A stretch of DNA of 64,000 nucleotides. Source: Dictyostelium discoideum. Its lineage: Eukaryota. The translations under genes were made by a program, and so were the position numbers. The stretch is taken from NCBI GenBank assembly GCA_000004695.1, contig CM000151.3, positions 7,200,001 through 7,264,000 on the forward strand, given 5' to 3'. Of the stretch, positions 23,776-41,600 are shown one piece after another (the first letter of the stretch is position 1; the number at the start of each line of letters is the position of its first letter). Below the pieces are notes generated by a model, which did not search any database, was not told the DNA's origin, and saw nothing but the letters and a program-made list of their open reading frames with translations.

Positions 23776-24492
23776 ATGAGAATAAACTTTAAATTAATTT
23801 TAATAATATTAACAAGTTTTTATGGAATTATTAATTGTCAAAGTACTTGTCCATATTCTAAAACCGTAATTAATGGAGCATCAGCAACTTTTTATTCAGC
23901 AATGGATAATGGAAATTGTGGATTTGGGAAATTAACAGGACCAACTGGACCTGGAAATTATATGATTGCAGCTCTCGGTACTAAACTATATCAAAATGGA
24001 GCTCAATGTGGCCAATGTTTTAAAATTAGTAATTCTAAAAATGCTTCTGTCACTGTAATGGCCACAGATTCATGTAACGATGCTGGATATTGTCAAAGGG
24101 ATAATCATTTTGATTTATCGCCTACCGCATTCTCAATATTAGGAGCACAATCTCAAGGTGTGTTGGATGGATTATCCTATGTTAAAGTACCATGTAGAGT
24201 TAGTGGTAATGTTAAAGTTATGTTAAAAGATGGAAGTAATGCTTACTGGACATCTTTCTTGGTTTTCAATAATGCTATTGATGTTAAACAAGTTTCAATA
24301 AAGTTAAGTGGAAGCTCCACTTATGTACCACTCACTCAAACAACTTATAACTATTGGCCATCAAGTATTACTGCTGGTTCTTTCCAAGTTAGAATTGAAT
24401 CAATTGGTGGTGAATTCATTTATGTAACTATACCAAGTGTTGTTAGTAGTAAAATTTATGATACTGGTAGCCAATTCTCTTCATCGTGTTAA
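23776..24492 (+). CDS. Expansin-like secreted protein (DPBB + CBM63 domains) with signal peptide; single exon
   Basis: MRINFKLILIILTSFYGIINC signal peptide, then GASATFYSAMDNGNCGFG...GAQCGQCFKI...TDSCN...HFDLSPTAFSILG and a C-terminal beta-sandwich with conserved W/Y. It belongs to the Dictyostelium expL family. Confidence 0.8.
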   Translation: MRINFKLILIILTSFYGIINCQSTCPYSKTVINGASATFYSAMDNGNCGFGKLTGPTGPGNYMIAALGTKLYQNGAQCGQCFKISNSKNASVTVMATDSCNDAGYCQRDNHFDLSPTAFSILGAQSQGVLDGLSYVKVPCRVSGNVKVMLKDGSNAYWTSFLVFNNAIDVKQVSIKLSGSSTYVPLTQTTYNYWPSSITAGSFQVRIESIGGEFIYVTIPSVVSSKIYDTGSQFSSSC

Positions 24493-24772
24493 ATAAAAAA
24501 AATGAAAAAAAAAAAAAAAAAAAAAAAAATAATAATAATAATAAATTTTAATTTAATAAATTAATATTTAATATTATTGAATTAAATAAAAAAAAAAAAA
24601 ATACAAAATTATAATAATAAATTTTATTAAATTAAAAATAGTAAAAAGTTGTTTATTTTGTGAGGTGTAAAGTTTTTAATTTTATTTTATTTTTTGGTTA
24701 AAACTGGAAATTTTATTATTATTAAAAATTAAAAAAAAAAATAATAAAAAAATAATAAAAGAAAATCAATTA

Positions 24773-24835
24773 GTTTATCAATTTATAAGCGACTATTAAT
24801 TTAGTTTTAGCATTATAAAAATCATTACAACTAAT
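24773..24835 (-). promoter_or_regulatory. SECIS-like stem-loop in the 3'UTR of the candidate selenoprotein, ~300 nt downstream of its stop
   Basis: Minus-strand RNA: AGUUGUA-AUGA-UU-[UUUAUAA]-UGCU-AAAA-CUAAAUUAAUAGUCGC-[UUAUAAA]-U-UGAU-AAAC. It has the AUGA...UGAU non-Watson-Crick quartet, a perfect 7-bp helix II, and unpaired AAAA about 13 nt after the quartet (form-1 geometry). The helix is all A/U, so a chance occurrence cannot be excluded. Confidence 0.3.
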
Positions 24836-25139
24836 TTTATTTGAACTATTTATTTGTTATTAAAAAAAATAAAAACTACTAAAAATATACCATTACTTAT
24901 ATTTTTAATTTTGTTTTAAATTTTTATGCAACAAATAAAATAATTCAAATTTTAAAAATTCTTTTTTTTTTTTTTTTTTTTTTTTCTTTTTTTCCTTCTA
25001 ATATGTCTATTCCTTTTTTTAATTTGTTTTTTTTTTTTTTTTTTTAATTCTATTTAATTTACTATATGTACACTAAAAACTATTTGAAAAAAAAAAAAAA
25101 AAAAGAAAACCAATTTAACCTAAAATTTGTTAATTCTTT

Positions 25140-25967
25140 TTAATTCTTTTTTGAAGGACGTAATTGTGTCCAAACCTTTTTAATTTTTGGAATTAAATCG
25201 GCAGCCCAAATTGTACCAACTAAAAGACAAGCATAACCTGTATAAGTGAAAACTATAGCAGAGAACCAACCCATAACAGACAAGCAAGTTATATTTTCAT
25301 TCTCGCAACCAGGTCTATAGGCAGCAGGTGAAATGAAAGAGTGGATGGTCCAAATACTATTATCAACTAGAATATGTCTTAGAATATCAAAGGTTGCCAA
25401 TGGAACAGCGATAGCTGTAAGATAAAAAGGTCCAAATTTAATCCAATGACCTCTATCCGATGGTCTCTTTTTACATTTATGGAAATGATATTGAGCAAGG
25501 TTTGAAAGTATACTAAGTGTAATGGCGAATGTTAAAGAATGAGCTAGTTCAACGGATCCTGCACTAACTGCAACACCAGAAAGGCTTGCAATGAGCACAG
25601 GCCAACATCAAGAACCTATAAAAATCAATATAAATATATATATATATATATATTAGTTTTCATAGCACTATTTTATTGATTTGATTATTATTATTAAAAT
25701 CAAAAACTTACCAACTAAAGCTGGAATACTAATTAAAAGTGTAAGAATTGAAATGAATAATGGTTTTTTAGTTTGTTCTTCTTGTGGGGAGTTTGAGGTT
25801 GAGGAGATACCAATGTTTGCTTTTTCTTCATCGTTTGTCTTTGAAATTAATGGTGTAGACTCATCACTAGCATTATTGATAGATGATGATGATGAAGAAG
25901 GTCTAGCTCAAACGCCACCTTCACAATCTTCACCTAAATCCACTTTTGGTAAATTAAATAATGACAT
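25140..25967 (-). CDS. Candidate selenoprotein: polytopic membrane protein whose reading frame holds two in-frame TGA codons (minus-strand codons at 25908-25910 and 25608-25610); 2 exons approx 25712..25967 and 25140..25615
   Basis: ATG(25967) MSLFNLPKVDLGEDCEGGV-TGA-ARPSSSSSSINNASDESTPLISKTNDEEKANIGISSTSNSPQEEQTKKPLFISILTLLISIPALV, donor G|GTAAGT (25711), 97-nt AT-rich intron, acceptor TATAG|G (25616), then GS-TGA-CWPVLIASLSGVAVSAGSVELAHSL...(152 more aa, 4-5 TM helices) to TAA at 25140. The frame is confirmed by the ORF track: ORF 25140..25598 starts at a GTG four codons after the second TGA. Both interrupting codons are TGA, whereas TAA is the usual Dictyostelium stop, and both sit next to Cys (CEGGV-U, U-C). 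Confidence 0.5.
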
Positions 25968-26682
25968 TTCTTTTGCTTTTTTTTTTTTCTTTAACTTGTT
26001 TTTTAAAATTATTACTATTAATTATAAAATAAAGAATTAAAATGAAAAAAAAAAAATAAAGAAAATAAAGTGTTATTATTTAAAGTGTGTGTGGTTATTA
26101 ATGTAAAAATGTAATGATATAAAAAATAAAAAAATAAAAAATAAAAAAAAAAGTGAAAGAACGGTTTTTAAAAAAAAAAAAATAAAAAAAAATGAAAAAA
26201 AAACAATTATTAATATAGAAAGAAATTTCATTTTATTTTTCTTTTCCACAAAAGCGCCGACGAATAAAAAAAAAATTTTTAGATATTTATTTTAAATTTT
26301 AAAATTAGGAATTAATTAATTTTTTTACCATTAAATAAAACATTCACAAAAAAAAAAAAAAAAAAAATTTTATTTTCATTTTTTTTATTTTTTTTTTTTT
26401 TTATTGGTTAAATTTATTTATTTTTAATATGAATTTAGTATATAAAAATAGATAGAGCACTCAAGAATACACAAAATGATATAAAGTATAAAAAGGATGT
26501 AATCATTCCGTTTTTTTGATTTTTTTTTTTTTTTTTTTTTATCTAAAATTTTATTTTCAGAATTTATTTAATTTTAAATTCATTTTTTTATCTTAATAAA
26601 TACATTTTTTTTTTTTATTTTTATTTTTTTATTTTTTTATTTTTTTCTTTTTTCTTTTTTCAGGTTTTGTGACTTATTATTT

Positions 26683-29600
26683 TTATTTTGGCATTGTTGG
26701 TAAAGAGAGGGGTATGGGTGGTGTCGTTCTTCCTTGAATTGTAATTCCTGTAGATTTTGACAACGATGCTTGGTGGAATTTTGGTTTATTAAAAAGATTA
26801 CAAGTACCATTGGATAAAATTGGTTGAAAAGTAGTTGGAGAGTTATTAGTATTATTGGATGGAGGTGGTAAATCATTATTTGTTGTTACATTTCCAATGG
26901 TCGAAGATGATCGAGGTGGCGGAGCATGCTTTACAATTAAAGGAGGTGGTGGTAATTGAATTTCACTAGCAGTTTTTTTAAATGCACTATTTATATTACT
27001 AAATGGAGAAGAACGATTTGGTAAAGTACAAGTTTGATTTATTGAATTTTGATTATTGTTATTATTATTGTCATTATTATTATCATTATTATTATTATTA
27101 TTATTATTGTTATTATTATTTATTGATGATGGTTTTGAAGCAATTGGTTGTGATATTATTGATGCAGTTGTAATTGGTGATTTTGCTCGTGGTGCTGGAG
27201 TTGGTTTAGTAACTGGAGATTTTGCTCTTATCACTGTTGATGGTGGTGTTGTTTGAGGTGGTGGAGTTGGTGATACTGAATGTGGTGTTGAAGAGGATGG
27301 TGGTGGTGGTGGTAATCTATTTGTATCACCTTGTTGATATAAATAAGTTTTAGGTGGTAATGGTGGTGGAATTGAATTGTTATTATTATTGTTTGAAGAA
27401 AAATAACCATCATCATCATCATTATCAGGTGGTGGAGGTAAATTTAAACAAGATGATGGTAATGGTGGTGGAGTGAATTTTGAATTATTTGAAATTATAG
27501 GTGGAGGAATTGGTGATGTGCAAGTTGATTTATATTCAGTTTTTGTAGAAATTGTAGTTGTTGTAGTAGTTGTAGTTGTTGTGATAGTTGTAATTGATGG
27601 TGGTGGTGGTAATGGTAAACTATTGAAATCAATAGGTGGTGGTAGATTTGAAAATTCTATTGAAGGTGGTGGAGGTGGTGGAAATCTTGGTGAATTTGAT
27701 GATGAATTAATTGTTGTTGTTGTTGTGGCGGTTGTTGATGGAATTGGTATTGGTGGTGGGAATTGTAAAGGTGGTGGAGGTGGTAATAAATTTGTAAAAC
27801 TTCTAGAACCACCACCATTTTTAATTGGAACATAGTCACAACTTGATGAAAGAGGTGTATTAAAACCAGATGATGGAGCAGATAAAGGATGTGAAGAAGC
27901 AGAAGTACTTAAATATTCAGTATCAGCAGTTATTGTATTATATGGACTAGCATTTCTAGGTGGTGGAGGTGGTTTTGTCATAGAATTTGGTTTTAAAACT
28001 TGTGATGCTGGAGGTGTAGTCAATTGAGGAGAAGATGATGAATCATCACTACCATATGAAATTGATGATATTGTTTGTGGCATTCTTCTTGCATTATGTT
28101 TTGTATCTTGTTGTTGTAATTGTTGTTGTTGTTGCTGTTGTTGTTGCTGTTGTTGTTGTAATTGTTGTTGTAATTGTTGTTGAATTGATGGATCATTTTG
28201 GAAATTATAAAATGATGGTACAGAACTTGCTCTTGAAAAATTTGAAGAAGATGGTACAGTGCTTTGAAAAGTTGGAGATAATGAATCAATTACAGAATGA
28301 GTAAGAGTACTATTGGGTGAAGGGTTGGCAGAGTATGGACCACTAAGAGGTTTACCAGTTGTTGAATTATTTGGAGAAGTGAAAATATCTTTAACATTTA
28401 ATGGTGGTGGAGGTGGTTTTCTAGTTTCTCTTAAACTACCAGTTGGAGTAATTGAATTCAGTGATAATGAAGATGGTGAACCTGATGAAGTTGAGGACGA
28501 AGAAATTAAACCACATCTACCAATTGTACCATTACCACCACCACTATTTGAATGACTTTGTCTAGTATTAAAACTTGGAGATTCTAAACTTGGTGAATTA
28601 CTACCACCACTACTACCACCATTACCACAACCACTATTACTTAATAAACCAGTTAAATTTGCCGAAGATCTTGGAGATGGTGTCATTGAAATATCAATTG
28701 ATAAAGTTGGAGTACTTGATAAAGAAGATAAAGAACTTGTTGAATTTAAGAAAGTACCAGAATTCTTTTTTAAGAACCAACTATATTTAGCTTGTTTATT
28801 TTGATCAATTTTACCACCAGCCAATGATTGAATTGCAGCTAACCATTCTTTTTTCTCTGCTTCACTTGAAAAGTATAAACCAATAATCTTTTCTTTCTTT
28901 TCATTTAATACTAAAATTTCAAATCCTTCTTTATAACCAGGTAATGAATCAATTGAATCACGAATTAAAATATTTTCTAAATAAACTATTAATTTTACAG
29001 TTGAATTTGATTTTTTATTTTTAGCTAAAATTAATACATCTATATATTTTTTTATAAAAAAAAAAAAAAAAAAAAATTAATATTTTTTAAAAATTTAAAA
29101 AATAAATAAATTAATAAAATAAAATATTTTACCATTTAATAAAATACATCTTAATAATTCTTTATCTAATTTTTTTGAAACTAAACCTTCTTTTATAAAT
29201 TTTCTATTTTGATTTGATAATTTTAAATCTGAATCTAAATTTTGTAAAGAATATTCAATTTCTTTAATTTTTTTATCATTTTCTATTTTCTCGTCGGCAA
29301 GTCTTTTTTGATGATTAATTTCCTCTAAGATTGAATTAATTTTTAAGAAACAATAATTTATAAAACCATAGTCCATATGATCGATTGGAGTATTCTCTAA
29401 AAGTGATTTTAATAGTAATGGATATTTTGTAATTCTTTGAATTGGTTTAATAATTAACATTGGAAATGATAATCCTCTTGTTAAATGACTCTTTGCTGCA
29501 CCTTCAATACAATTTGAAAATACTTTTGATGAAATTTTTAATTTTTCAAATGATTCTATACATGTATTTTGATATGAACAAAATTCTTTATATAAATTTA

Positions 29601-37203: not shown

Positions 37204-37285
37204 CGACATCGGCAGGGTTCGAACCTGCGCCCCCGAAGGGATCTGATTTCTAGTCAGACGCATTAGACCACTTTGCTACGATGTC
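37204..37285 (-). tRNA. tRNA-Ser (anticodon AGA), class II with long variable arm, no intron
   Basis: Minus strand: GACATCG-TA-GCA-AAGTGGTCTAA-TGC-G-TCTGA-CTAGAAA-TCAGA-TCCCTTCGGGGGC-GCAGG-TTCGAAC-CCTGC-CGATGTC-G. There is a 7-bp acceptor, a 3-bp D stem with GG in the loop, an anticodon loop CU-AGA-AA, a 13-nt variable hairpin, a canonical T-arm GGTTCGAAC, and discriminator G. Confidence 0.85.
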
Positions 37286-38640: not shown

Positions 38641-41600
38641 ATGGAATCAGGATCACAAATCTTTCTTCCATATAAATCAGTTGGTTATGTCAGTTCAGGT
38701 GTACCATTTAAATTAAGAGCTGAAAAATTGCATTATTCAATTATGTTAGCCATTGGGAATTCTTTTCAATTATTAAATGTAATTATTATTTTTTTTTTTT
38801 AAAAAAATAAAAATATTATAAAAAAACATATATTAATGACATTATTATTATTATTATTATTATTAAATTAGTCAATTAAATTATTTCCAAGAATGGTATC
38901 AAATAGTCAAGAAGGTAAAATTAGAGATATGTCATTTTATAAGAAAGATCATTTTTTGACAACATGTAAAAAAGATATTATATTATGGAAAGGTCAATAT
39001 GAAGAATTTAGATTTAGAGGACATTCATCAAAGGTTATTAAATTGATGGTATTTGATAATATATTATTTTCATTGGCAAAAAACAATGAACTGATTATGT
39101 GGGATGTTGATTCACGTTTAATTTTTAAAGAACAATTACCAGAATTTAATGCAAAAACTCATCGTATAACAGAGATTGTCCATCCACTTGGATATTATAA
39201 TAAAATTTTAATTGGATTTGAAAGTGGTGAAGCACAAATTTGGAATATTAAAACAAAGAAATTAATATTTACATTCAATTTAGTAAAGGATAATAAAAAC
39301 ATTAAAGATAAAATCACCTCATTTCAACAGTCACCAGTTTCAGATATAATTGCAATTGGTTTTTCAGATGGTAATGTTATCATTCACAATTTGAAATTGA
39401 ATAAAACAGTATTAAGTTTTCAACAAAGAGGTTCAGTTTCATCGATTTCCTTTAGAAGTGACGGTCAAAAGCAACATGTTGCCACAAGTAGCCATAGTGG
39501 TGATATATTAATTTGGGATCTTGAAAAGAATAAACCTTTCCATACATTGAAAGCACATGATAGTGAATGTACAAAAGTTGAATTCCTAAGGGAAGAACCA
39601 ATCATTTGCACCACCGGTAACGATAATTCAATAAAGATGTGGCAATTCAACGGTGTAGATGGTGTACCAATTCTCTTAAGAGAACGTACCGGTCATTTAG
39701 ATCCACCAAAATCAAGCGAATTCTTTGGCGATGAACAAGAGAACTCAGTGATTTCAATCTCTGATCAATCAATTCGTTACGTTTCAATTGTTGCCTCCAC
39801 TTTTAATAAAGAATTATCAAAAAAGAATTTCAAAAAAGAAATGACTCCATTTAGTGGTTTCTCTACAAACTTTCGTAGAAATCGTAGTTGGGAAACTGCA
39901 GTTTCAATTCATGAAGATTCAAAACATGCTTTCACTTGGGATTGTTCAAGTTATTCCATAAATAAGAAATTAAATATTCAAGAACCAATTAGTTCAACTA
40001 AAATTTCAACTTGTGGTAATTTTGTTTTCTTTGGTACTGTTTATGGTAATCTATTGAAATTCAATATTCAATCTGGTATTAAACGTGCTAAAATTTTACC
40101 AAATATTCAAAAAACTTCAATAACAAGTATAATAGTTGAACCAACTAATCAATTTATAATTACAAGTGGTTTAGATTCAATTATAAATTATTGGGATTTT
40201 AATGATTTAAAATATTTATATTCAATTGATATTAATAATACCAATACAAATAATAAGGAAAATCAAGATAACAATAACAATGACAATAAAAAAAGTAAAA
40301 TTAGAATTTCAAAAATGTTATTACATAGTGAATCTGGTATATTTGCAGTGGTTTCAAATGATGATAAAATTAGATTATATGATATTGATACACGTAAATT
40401 AGTTAGATATTTCAATGTTAAAGGTAATGTTAATAGTATTGTTTTTAGTCATGATGGTCGTTGGATTATTGCAAGTACTCAAGTTGATTCGGTCGTTCGT
40501 GTACTTGATATTCCATCTGGTAAAATGATTGATTGGTTCAAAATGCCAAAACCAGTAACAAGTTTATCATTCTCTCCAAAAGGTGAATATTTAGTTACAA
40601 CTCATTCCGGACAATTACCAATTTATCTTTGGAGTAATCAATCTCATTTCGGTTCAGTTTTCCTTAAAACTCCACCTCAAATTCCAAATACAATCATTTT
40701 ACCTTCACAAGTTATTGAAATTTCACCAATTCAAGAATCATCTAATAATAAACAAAAAAGTTCAACTAAAAAATTAAAAGAAAAAGAACAACATGAACAA
40801 GATGAAGAATTTGAAATTCAACAAGATTTAGGTTTACCTGAAGAATTTGATGAAGAAATGGAAGATAATCAAGTTGATAATAATGATAATGATGCTGATG
40901 ATAATAAAAAATCAACTATTAAACAAATTGATCAATTAATTACATTATCAAGTGATGTTGCAAAAAGCAAATGGCAATCACTCTTAAATTTAGATATCAT
41001 TAAAGAAAGGAATAGACCAATTCAACAAAATGAAAAACCAGCTTTAGCACCTTTCTTTTTATCAACTATTCAAGGTTTAGAACCAAAATTCGCTAAAATT
41101 GATGTTGTTAATCCTTTAACTATTAAAACTGCTGTCTCAACTGGTGGTGGTGGTAGTGCAAATACAACTGGTTCAACTGATGATAATGAAAATAATGGTG
41201 AACCAACTGAAGAAGAATTAAAAGGTTGGGATAATTGGGCTGGTGCTGATGATGAAGAAAATGATGATGACGATGATGATGAAGACAACGAAAATGATGA
41301 TCAAGATGAAGATAGTGAAGATGATGAAGATGAAGGTGATGAAGACCTTGAAAAAACTACTGAAACTTTCAAAAATGAGAAAGAAATTTATAGATCAGAC
41401 AAAGTTATTAAAACTGATTCACTTCAAGGTACAAGAACTAATTTTAATTTATCATTAGAAAATGGTTATATAACTCAAAATTGTAAGTGTAAAAAAATTA
41501 AAAATTAATAATAATAATACTTTTTTAATTAATTAACTGACTTTTTTTTTTTTTTTTTTTTTAATTAATTATTTAATTTAGATTCAGAAAGTTTAAGAAT

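Follow-up and report, generated by a model that had tools for sequence, protein, structure and literature searches.

Comparative evidence for an A/U-rich SECIS element downstream of the two-UGA membrane selenoprotein gene of Dictyostelium discoideum

The MSP locus

The window analysed here (the whole stretch of 64,000 nt, with 21% GC) contains on its minus strand the gene for the membrane selenoprotein MSP of Dictyostelium discoideum. The gene consists of two exons with two in-frame TGA codons (..CEGGV-U-ARP.. and ..ALVGS-U-CWP..), the first of them at codon 20. The gene and the sequence that follows it are arranged as follows.

25712-25967, minus strand: MSP exon 1, with the ATG at 25967 and an in-frame TGA (selenocysteine, Sec) at 25910-25908 within CEGGV-U-ARP
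25711-25616, minus strand: MSP intron
25140-25615, minus strand: MSP exon 2, with an in-frame TGA (Sec) at 25610-25608 within VGS-U-CWP and the TAA stop at 25142-25140
24842-25139, minus strand: predicted 3'UTR spacer between the MSP stop codon and the SECIS element, read from the sequence; orthologues have a comparable spacing of +212 to +293

In the MSP family, a conserved VG(S/A)-U-CWP motif starts a multi-pass membrane domain, and dictyostelid members carry a second, N-terminal Sec. The gene in the window encodes both, as GS-U-CWPVLIASL opens the multi-pass membrane domain and CEGGV-U-ARP is the N-terminal Sec site. The predicted protein aligns with published MSPs and with homologues that include a Heterostelium album protein annotated as 'membrane selenoprotein'. 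A search with the C-terminal domain recovered MSP orthologues in D. cf. discoideum, D. citrinum, D. purpureum, Polysphondylium violaceum, H. album and environmental amoebae. Both TGA codons and the peptide on either side of them are conserved in all dictyostelid genomic loci compared, and the TGA of exon 2 is shared by every homologous locus. MSP was described by Lobanov, Fomenko, Zhang, Sengupta, Hatfield and Gladyshev in 2007 (Genome Biol 8:R198), with the published SECIS sequence in Figure 5. Read with its two TGAs, the window translation is the D. discoideum MSP row in the supplementary alignment of Lobanov et al. 2007 (..NLPKVDLGEDCEGGVUARP.., ..ALVGSUCWPVLIASLSGVAVS..). The same study counts five selenoproteins in D. 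discoideum, including MSP as a 'membrane selenoprotein' with two Sec residues, and 75Se-labelled bands match the sizes of SPS, MSP, DI and Sep15 (PMC2375036).

Public gene models treat the two codons differently. The GenBank MSP models in D. cf. discoideum, D. citrinum, D. purpureum, P. violaceum and H. album (L001-L005; P0001-P0003, P0005, P0006) use invented introns to skip both Sec codons, and the model P0001 lacks GEDCEGGVU and GSUCWPVLIASLSG. A deiodinase-like (DI-like) gene of D. cf. discoideum is annotated as two genes, split at the UGA (L026 2135-2476 and 2501-2911). The skipped-codon models and the split gene are selenoprotein mis-annotations.

Anatomy of the element

Downstream of MSP and in the same sense lies a hairpin whose AUGA begins with the 315th nucleotide after the TAA stop (25142-25140). 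From one end of helix I to the other, the element takes up 24836-24768, and the covariance-model match covers 24841-24762. Its parts are listed below.

24762-24841, minus strand: whole SECIS element, covered over its full length by R1, a covariance model derived from orthologues
24829-24836, minus strand: helix I, 5' strand AAUUAGUU, in the minimum free energy (MFE) fold; RNAalifold columns 12-19/73-80, with compensatory changes in 8/8 pairs
24768-24775, minus strand: helix I, 3' strand AACUAAUU, from the MFE fold, RNAalifold and pair counts; partly beyond the interval of the earlier note
24826-24829, minus strand: UGUA pre-core adjoining the core on its 5' side, conserved and specific to Dictyostelium (PMC2375036)
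24822-24825, minus strand: AUGA, 5' side of the core quartet (tandem G.A/A.G kink-turn), invariant in alignment A2 and unpaired in the internal loop (RNAalifold)
24777-24780, minus strand: UGAU, 3' side of the quartet (G24779 and A24778), its UGA invariant in A2
U24821.U24780 and U24820.U24781, minus strand: U.U mismatches adjoining the core, a U-U feature described in PMC2375036
24810-24819, minus strand: helix II, 5' strand, with UUUAUAA at 24819-24813, a bulged U24812, G24811 and C24810; RNAalifold columns 28-37/58-67
24782-24790, minus strand: helix II, 3' strand, with G24790, C24789 and UUAUAAA at 24788-24782, from the MFE fold, RNAalifold and pair counts
24819-24813/24788-24782, and 24811-24789 with 24810-24790: helix II pairs, the lower UUUAUAA/UUAUAAA and the upper G-C and C-G
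24806-24809, minus strand: UAAA bulge with the unpaired AAA at 24808-24806 (the 'AAR' motif of SECIS elements), A40-A42 being invariant in A2 (seven sequences)
24792-24805, minus strand: mini-stem ACUA 24805-24802 / UAGU 24795-24792 with the apical loop AAUUAA 24801-24796, from the MFE fold

The MFE fold has the shape of a type II SECIS, with helix I, the core internal loop, helix II, the A bulge and a mini-stem, and the mini-stem above the A bulge assigns the element to type II. AUGA faces GA at the base of helix II and helix I lies below the internal loop, as in SECIS elements generally. The unpaired AAA sits 13 nt after AUGA, within the distance of about 10-13 nt at which SECIS elements carry AA(R) in an apical loop or bulge. 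Helix II comprises 7+2 bp in D. discoideum, with compensatory changes in 8/10 of its pairs among orthologues. All features of the Dictyostelium type are present, namely UGUA before the core, U-U after it, the apical AAA bulge and the type II form.

An earlier note on this DNA had proposed the element from the letters of the sequence, and its description largely stands. The minus-strand RNA it gave, with AUGA at 24825-24822 and UGAU at 24780-24777, is confirmed in the sequence, as is its perfect 7-bp helix II (UUUAUAA/UUAUAAA). The unpaired As that it put about 13 nt after the quartet are an AAAA starting 14 nt after AUGA, and its distance of about 300 nt from the TAA stop agrees with the count above. 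The interval 24773-24835 needs two small corrections: AGUUGUA starts at 24832 and not at 24835, and part of the 3' strand of helix I falls outside.

The MSP gene and its SECIS are already known and were published in 2007. We take the element as known because it has every published feature of a D. discoideum SECIS and belongs to the gene named there. In a comparison of described features with the MSP SECIS that Lobanov et al. 2007 published for D. discoideum, the gene and the features are the same and no difference is detectable. We infer nucleotide identity with the published Figure 5 element from these features and from the lack of another candidate in the MSP 3'UTR, where neither a SECIS scanner nor R1 found a second one.

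Motif statistics and general covariance models

Taken by themselves, the motif and the folding energy do not rise above chance in this window. A loose SECIS pattern (ATGA followed by 9-14 nt and AA, with GA on the 3' side, 7/11 or more pairs in helix II and 4 or more in helix I) occurs at 61 distinct ATGAs on both strands of the 64-kb window, against 61.25 in composition-preserving shuffles. The string TGTAATGAT is found twice, with 1.6 occurrences expected. The folding energy of the element (-9.9 kcal/mol) is no better than that of shuffles (z = -0.43); a single-sequence fold z-score is uninformative for an A/U hairpin. The pattern also matched around 40605 on the minus strand (window 40560-40610, CCGGAAUGAG..., with a helix I of 11 bp). 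We judged this match to be due to chance, as the sequence that holds it is richer in GC and apparently coding, and as R1 gave it no score.

The Rfam model SECIS_1 (RF00031) gave no match to the element at the gathering threshold in the whole window, nor at E<=10 in a 2.3 kb or a 106 nt stretch. The gathering score, which the D. discoideum element does not reach, is the detection criterion of one model and not a biological defining feature. [quoted passage not shown] A GC-richer homologous element in an environmental amoebozoan sequence (L008) scores 31.3 bits on RF00031 against a gathering score of 35 (E = 0.015). This score ties the aligned MSP element family to the curated Rfam SECIS family. 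Given the insensitivity of the model and the near-pass of the L008 homologue, we do not take the Rfam null result as a refutation. The sole match in the window at Rfam gathering level is a tRNA-Ser(AGA) gene at 37204-37285 on the minus strand, which is not a tRNA-Sec.

Orthologous elements and covariation

In D. cf. discoideum, D. citrinum, D. purpureum, P. violaceum, H. album and the soil metagenome contig L007, the MSP stop is followed at 212-293 nt by a SECIS-shaped element; in L008, which is more distantly related, the element lies at +60. The orthologous elements were first located with a scanner requiring some pairing, so the percentage of paired positions was partly selected for. The conserved motifs in unpaired loops and bulges, the consistent position and the match of the leave-out model are free of this selection. 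In a plain MAFFT alignment of seven elements made with no structural guidance (A2), mean identity is 66%, AUGA, AAA and UGA do not vary, and ACU...AGUC hardly does. RNAalifold predicts from A2 exactly helix I and helix II, leaving AUGA and UGA unpaired, with compensatory double changes in 16/18 predicted pairs. Paired cells amount to 84.1%, compared with 63.4% in shuffles, and none of 500 shuffles reaches the observed value in any of the five measures. Sliding the 3' partners by 1-3 columns reduces paired cells to 37-56%. In an alignment of nine elements fitted to the model (A4), 88.7% of cells are paired, 20/21 pairs covary and the ACU/AGU mini-stem pairs are 100% paired. Each orthologous RNA also folds alone, by its own MFE, into the type II shape with a mini-stem. 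The UGUA pre-core is not universal among MSP orthologues, where UGCA, UGGC, UGAC and AGUG are also present.

Closely related genomes provide a second view on conservation. Searches of 3' flanks between species with blastn-short were swamped by poly-A/T, and only a global identity profile between D. discoideum and D. citrinum was usable. In this profile the 3' flank is best conserved at the element, with 39/40 identity and no gaps across 24844-24765; directly 3' of it, identity falls to 24-29/40 with gaps.

The covariance model R1 was built from five MSP orthologues, leaving out D. discoideum, D. citrinum and near-identical relatives, and was run with filters off on both strands of the whole 64-kb window. 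R1 returned one significant match, the element itself at 24762-24841 on the minus strand (51.1 bits, E = 3.5e-11), and the next best match in the window reached 17.2 bits (E = 0.18). The comparative evidence for the element is decisive and far beyond chance.

Other selenoprotein families

Elements of the same kind occur downstream of genes unrelated to MSP. Loci encoding SPS2 (selD) and DI-like proteins were found with D. discoideum queries from the supplement of Lobanov et al. 2007. In each SPS2 locus R1 matches best within the 3'UTR, at 220-274 nt past the stop, with 26.5 bits in D. dimigraforme, 25.8 bits in D. purpureum and 15.0 bits in H. album. R1 also matches about 100 nt after a DI-like gene of H. 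album (29.8 bits). The DI-like SECIS elements of D. cf. discoideum and D. purpureum were not matched by R1, because of their long mini-stems. These two were found in the 3'UTRs through the UGUAAUGA core and paired manually (UUGUAAUGAUUGC...AAAA... at +46 in D. cf. discoideum, CUGUAAUGAUUAC...CAAA... at +63 in D. purpureum), and their long mini-stems are as PMC2375036 describes.

The core UGUAAUGA is present in the 3'UTRs of SPS2 and of DI-like genes, in three species for each family, and UGUA is kept as pre-core in both families. The longer string TGTAATGA has 4 occurrences in the 128,000 window positions, and in 6/6 SPS2 and DI-like loci it occurs a single time on the plus strand, in the 3'UTR. 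The dictyostelid SPS2 and DI-like SECIS share with the MSP element the UUGUAAUGAU core context, the AAA bulge, a 3' UGA(U/A)AAA and the type II shape, with R1 scores of 15-30 bits where R1 detects them. Their helix sequences are unrelated to those of the MSP element, which indicates an independent origin. DI-like elements of the D. discoideum group differ further in a much longer mini-stem and in U.U mismatches lying further from the core, as seen in our manual pairing and in PMC2375036, and R1 gives them no score.

H. album carries two tandem DI-like genes (L028 929-1920 and 2501-3394). The first is followed by the SECIS detectable with R1 (2021-2095). Downstream of the second, a comparable sequence can be recognised only in its 3' half (..GGAGAUGAAACAUCAAACAAUCUCUGUCA.., near +270), and there is no UGUAAUGA.

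Interpretation of the element and its likely mechanism

The element is very probably a genuine SECIS of the D. discoideum MSP mRNA, serving the two-UGA gene directly upstream, and in all likelihood it is real and functional. The earlier note had made the same proposal, which now gains support from the orthologues and from what has been published on this SECIS in D. discoideum. Compared with eukaryotic type II SECIS (RF00031), the element has the same 3'UTR site, the AUGA/GA quartet between helices I and II, the AA(A) 13 nt after the core and the mini-stem above the A bulge. It differs in its almost entirely A/U helices, the lineage-specific UGUA pre-core and the U.U beside the quartet. It also escapes detection by the model, to which only the GC-richer amoebozoan element of L008 comes close.

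Three other readings have to be weighed. The hairpin could be specific to the MSP 3'UTR and regulate, for example, mRNA stability or localisation, or it could be the site of another kink-turn protein, with no role in Sec insertion. Conservation and covariation prove a selected RNA structure and not its function, and weak box C/D snoRNA-like matches turn up in Rfam. At 13 bits these matches are well under threshold, and we rejected a snoRNA-like reading on this score. Against a role confined to MSP regulation, R1 and the UGUAAUGA core find the same type of element 3' of the non-homologous SPS2 and DI-like genes in several species, and the L008 homologue almost reaches the SECIS_1 threshold. The two conserved UGAs moreover require a SECIS, and the MSP 3'UTR offers no other candidate. 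We consider such a regulatory hairpin very unlikely.

A second reading is a chance A/U-rich hairpin with AUGA...AA...GA, and with no function, in a genome of 21% GC. The earlier note had voiced this worry, which was justified at the level of the motif, where pattern counts, folding energy and the Rfam search give nothing above expectation. The worry is overturned by the comparative data and the published description, since the element is the best-conserved 3'-flank block relative to D. citrinum, shows compensatory changes in all dictyostelid orthologues and is the unique 51-bit match of an independent model. Chance therefore retains hardly any probability. The earlier note had jointly set against a SECIS a covariance score below threshold and the absence of a counterpart in other dictyostelids. 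The first was observed with SECIS_1. The second clearly was not, as conserved and covarying counterparts of the AUGA...AA...GA core exist in every dictyostelid MSP orthologue examined. A place in the 3'UTR or terminator of the convergent plus-strand gene (23776-24492, DPBB_1-like) is similarly improbable in the extreme: the element does lie in the 645-nt gap between the convergent genes, about 270 nt past the stop of the other gene, but R1 matches the minus strand only, and the element stays 3' of MSP and in MSP sense in D. purpureum, P. violaceum and H. album, where the neighbour differs (downstream neighbours across species are DPBB_1, Asn synthase and Sdh5).

Insertion of Sec in eukaryotes relies on the AUGA/GA quartet, which forms a kink-turn bound by SBP2, with recruitment of eEFSec and Sec-tRNA(Sec). 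As a SECIS of MSP, the element would be transcribed within a predicted MSP 3'UTR reaching 24762. The RNA would then fold into helix I, the internal loop, the AUGA/GA kink-turn quartet, helix II, the AAA bulge, the mini-stem and the apical loop. By analogy with characterised eukaryotic SECIS elements, an SBP2 homologue would likely bind the kink-turn. SBP2 might then recruit eEFSec-GTP-Sec-tRNA(Sec) to ribosomes paused at both UGAs (codon 20 and the GS-U-CWP site), and the element would thereby promote insertion of selenocysteine in place of termination. A homologue of SBP2 exists in D. discoideum (PMC2746813).

Implications for dictyostelid SECIS elements and annotation

Dictyostelid SECIS elements could form a coherent, lineage-specific subclass that is missed by Rfam, an idea we offer tentatively and regard as rather doubtful. 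Such a subclass would be defined by the UGUA pre-core, U.U or pyrimidine mismatches, the AAA bulge and A/U helices, and would extend from D. discoideum to Heterostelium and across three gene families. If it exists, a model similar to R1 might uncover selenoprotein genes in Amoebozoa that are unannotated or mis-spliced at UGA. Co-evolution with an SBP2 that has diverged might also lie behind the subclass.

Little is added here to the 2007 description: the element is present and covaries across Dictyostelia, UGUA is not universal in MSP, and Rfam misses the whole group. The locus also illustrates that a true recoding signal can be spotted from raw sequence in an extremely AT-rich genome. In practical terms, the general Rfam SECIS model is blind to A/U-rich dictyostelid elements, and several dictyostelid MSP gene models splice around the Sec codons. 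Both are issues of annotation and not new biology.

Neighbouring sequences and distant homologues

The surroundings of MSP contain several further features. The convergent neighbour at 23776-24492 on the plus strand is a 238-aa ORF, the counterpart of which in L001 has a DPBB_1 domain. The upstream neighbour at 26683-28824 on the minus strand is a 713-aa ORF with low-complexity sequence rich in Pro, Asn and Ser. A 119-aa ORF antisense to MSP exon 1 (25681-26040, plus strand) is probably spurious.

Distant MSP homologues are present in metagenome contigs with about 50% GC (L009-L025), which have a conserved in-frame TGA in VGS-U-CWPLLLAG. They resemble the chlorophyte MSPs of Lobanov et al. 2007. 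A possible SECIS (CUUAUGAAGCCUGCAGGAGAAAGCC...) lies about 700-800 nt downstream in these contigs.

Upstream of MSP, the 13-mer UUACAUUAAUAAC (window 26094-26106, minus strand) is located about 130-150 nt before the ATG in D. discoideum and D. cf. discoideum. H. album has the same 13-mer about 105 nt before its MSP ATG (L005, about 2890-2910), and D. citrinum has a degenerate copy, CUACAUUCAUAAC. The presence of this 13-mer explains the antisense matches of TGTAATGA upstream of MSP. The 13-mer may be a promoter or 5'UTR element.
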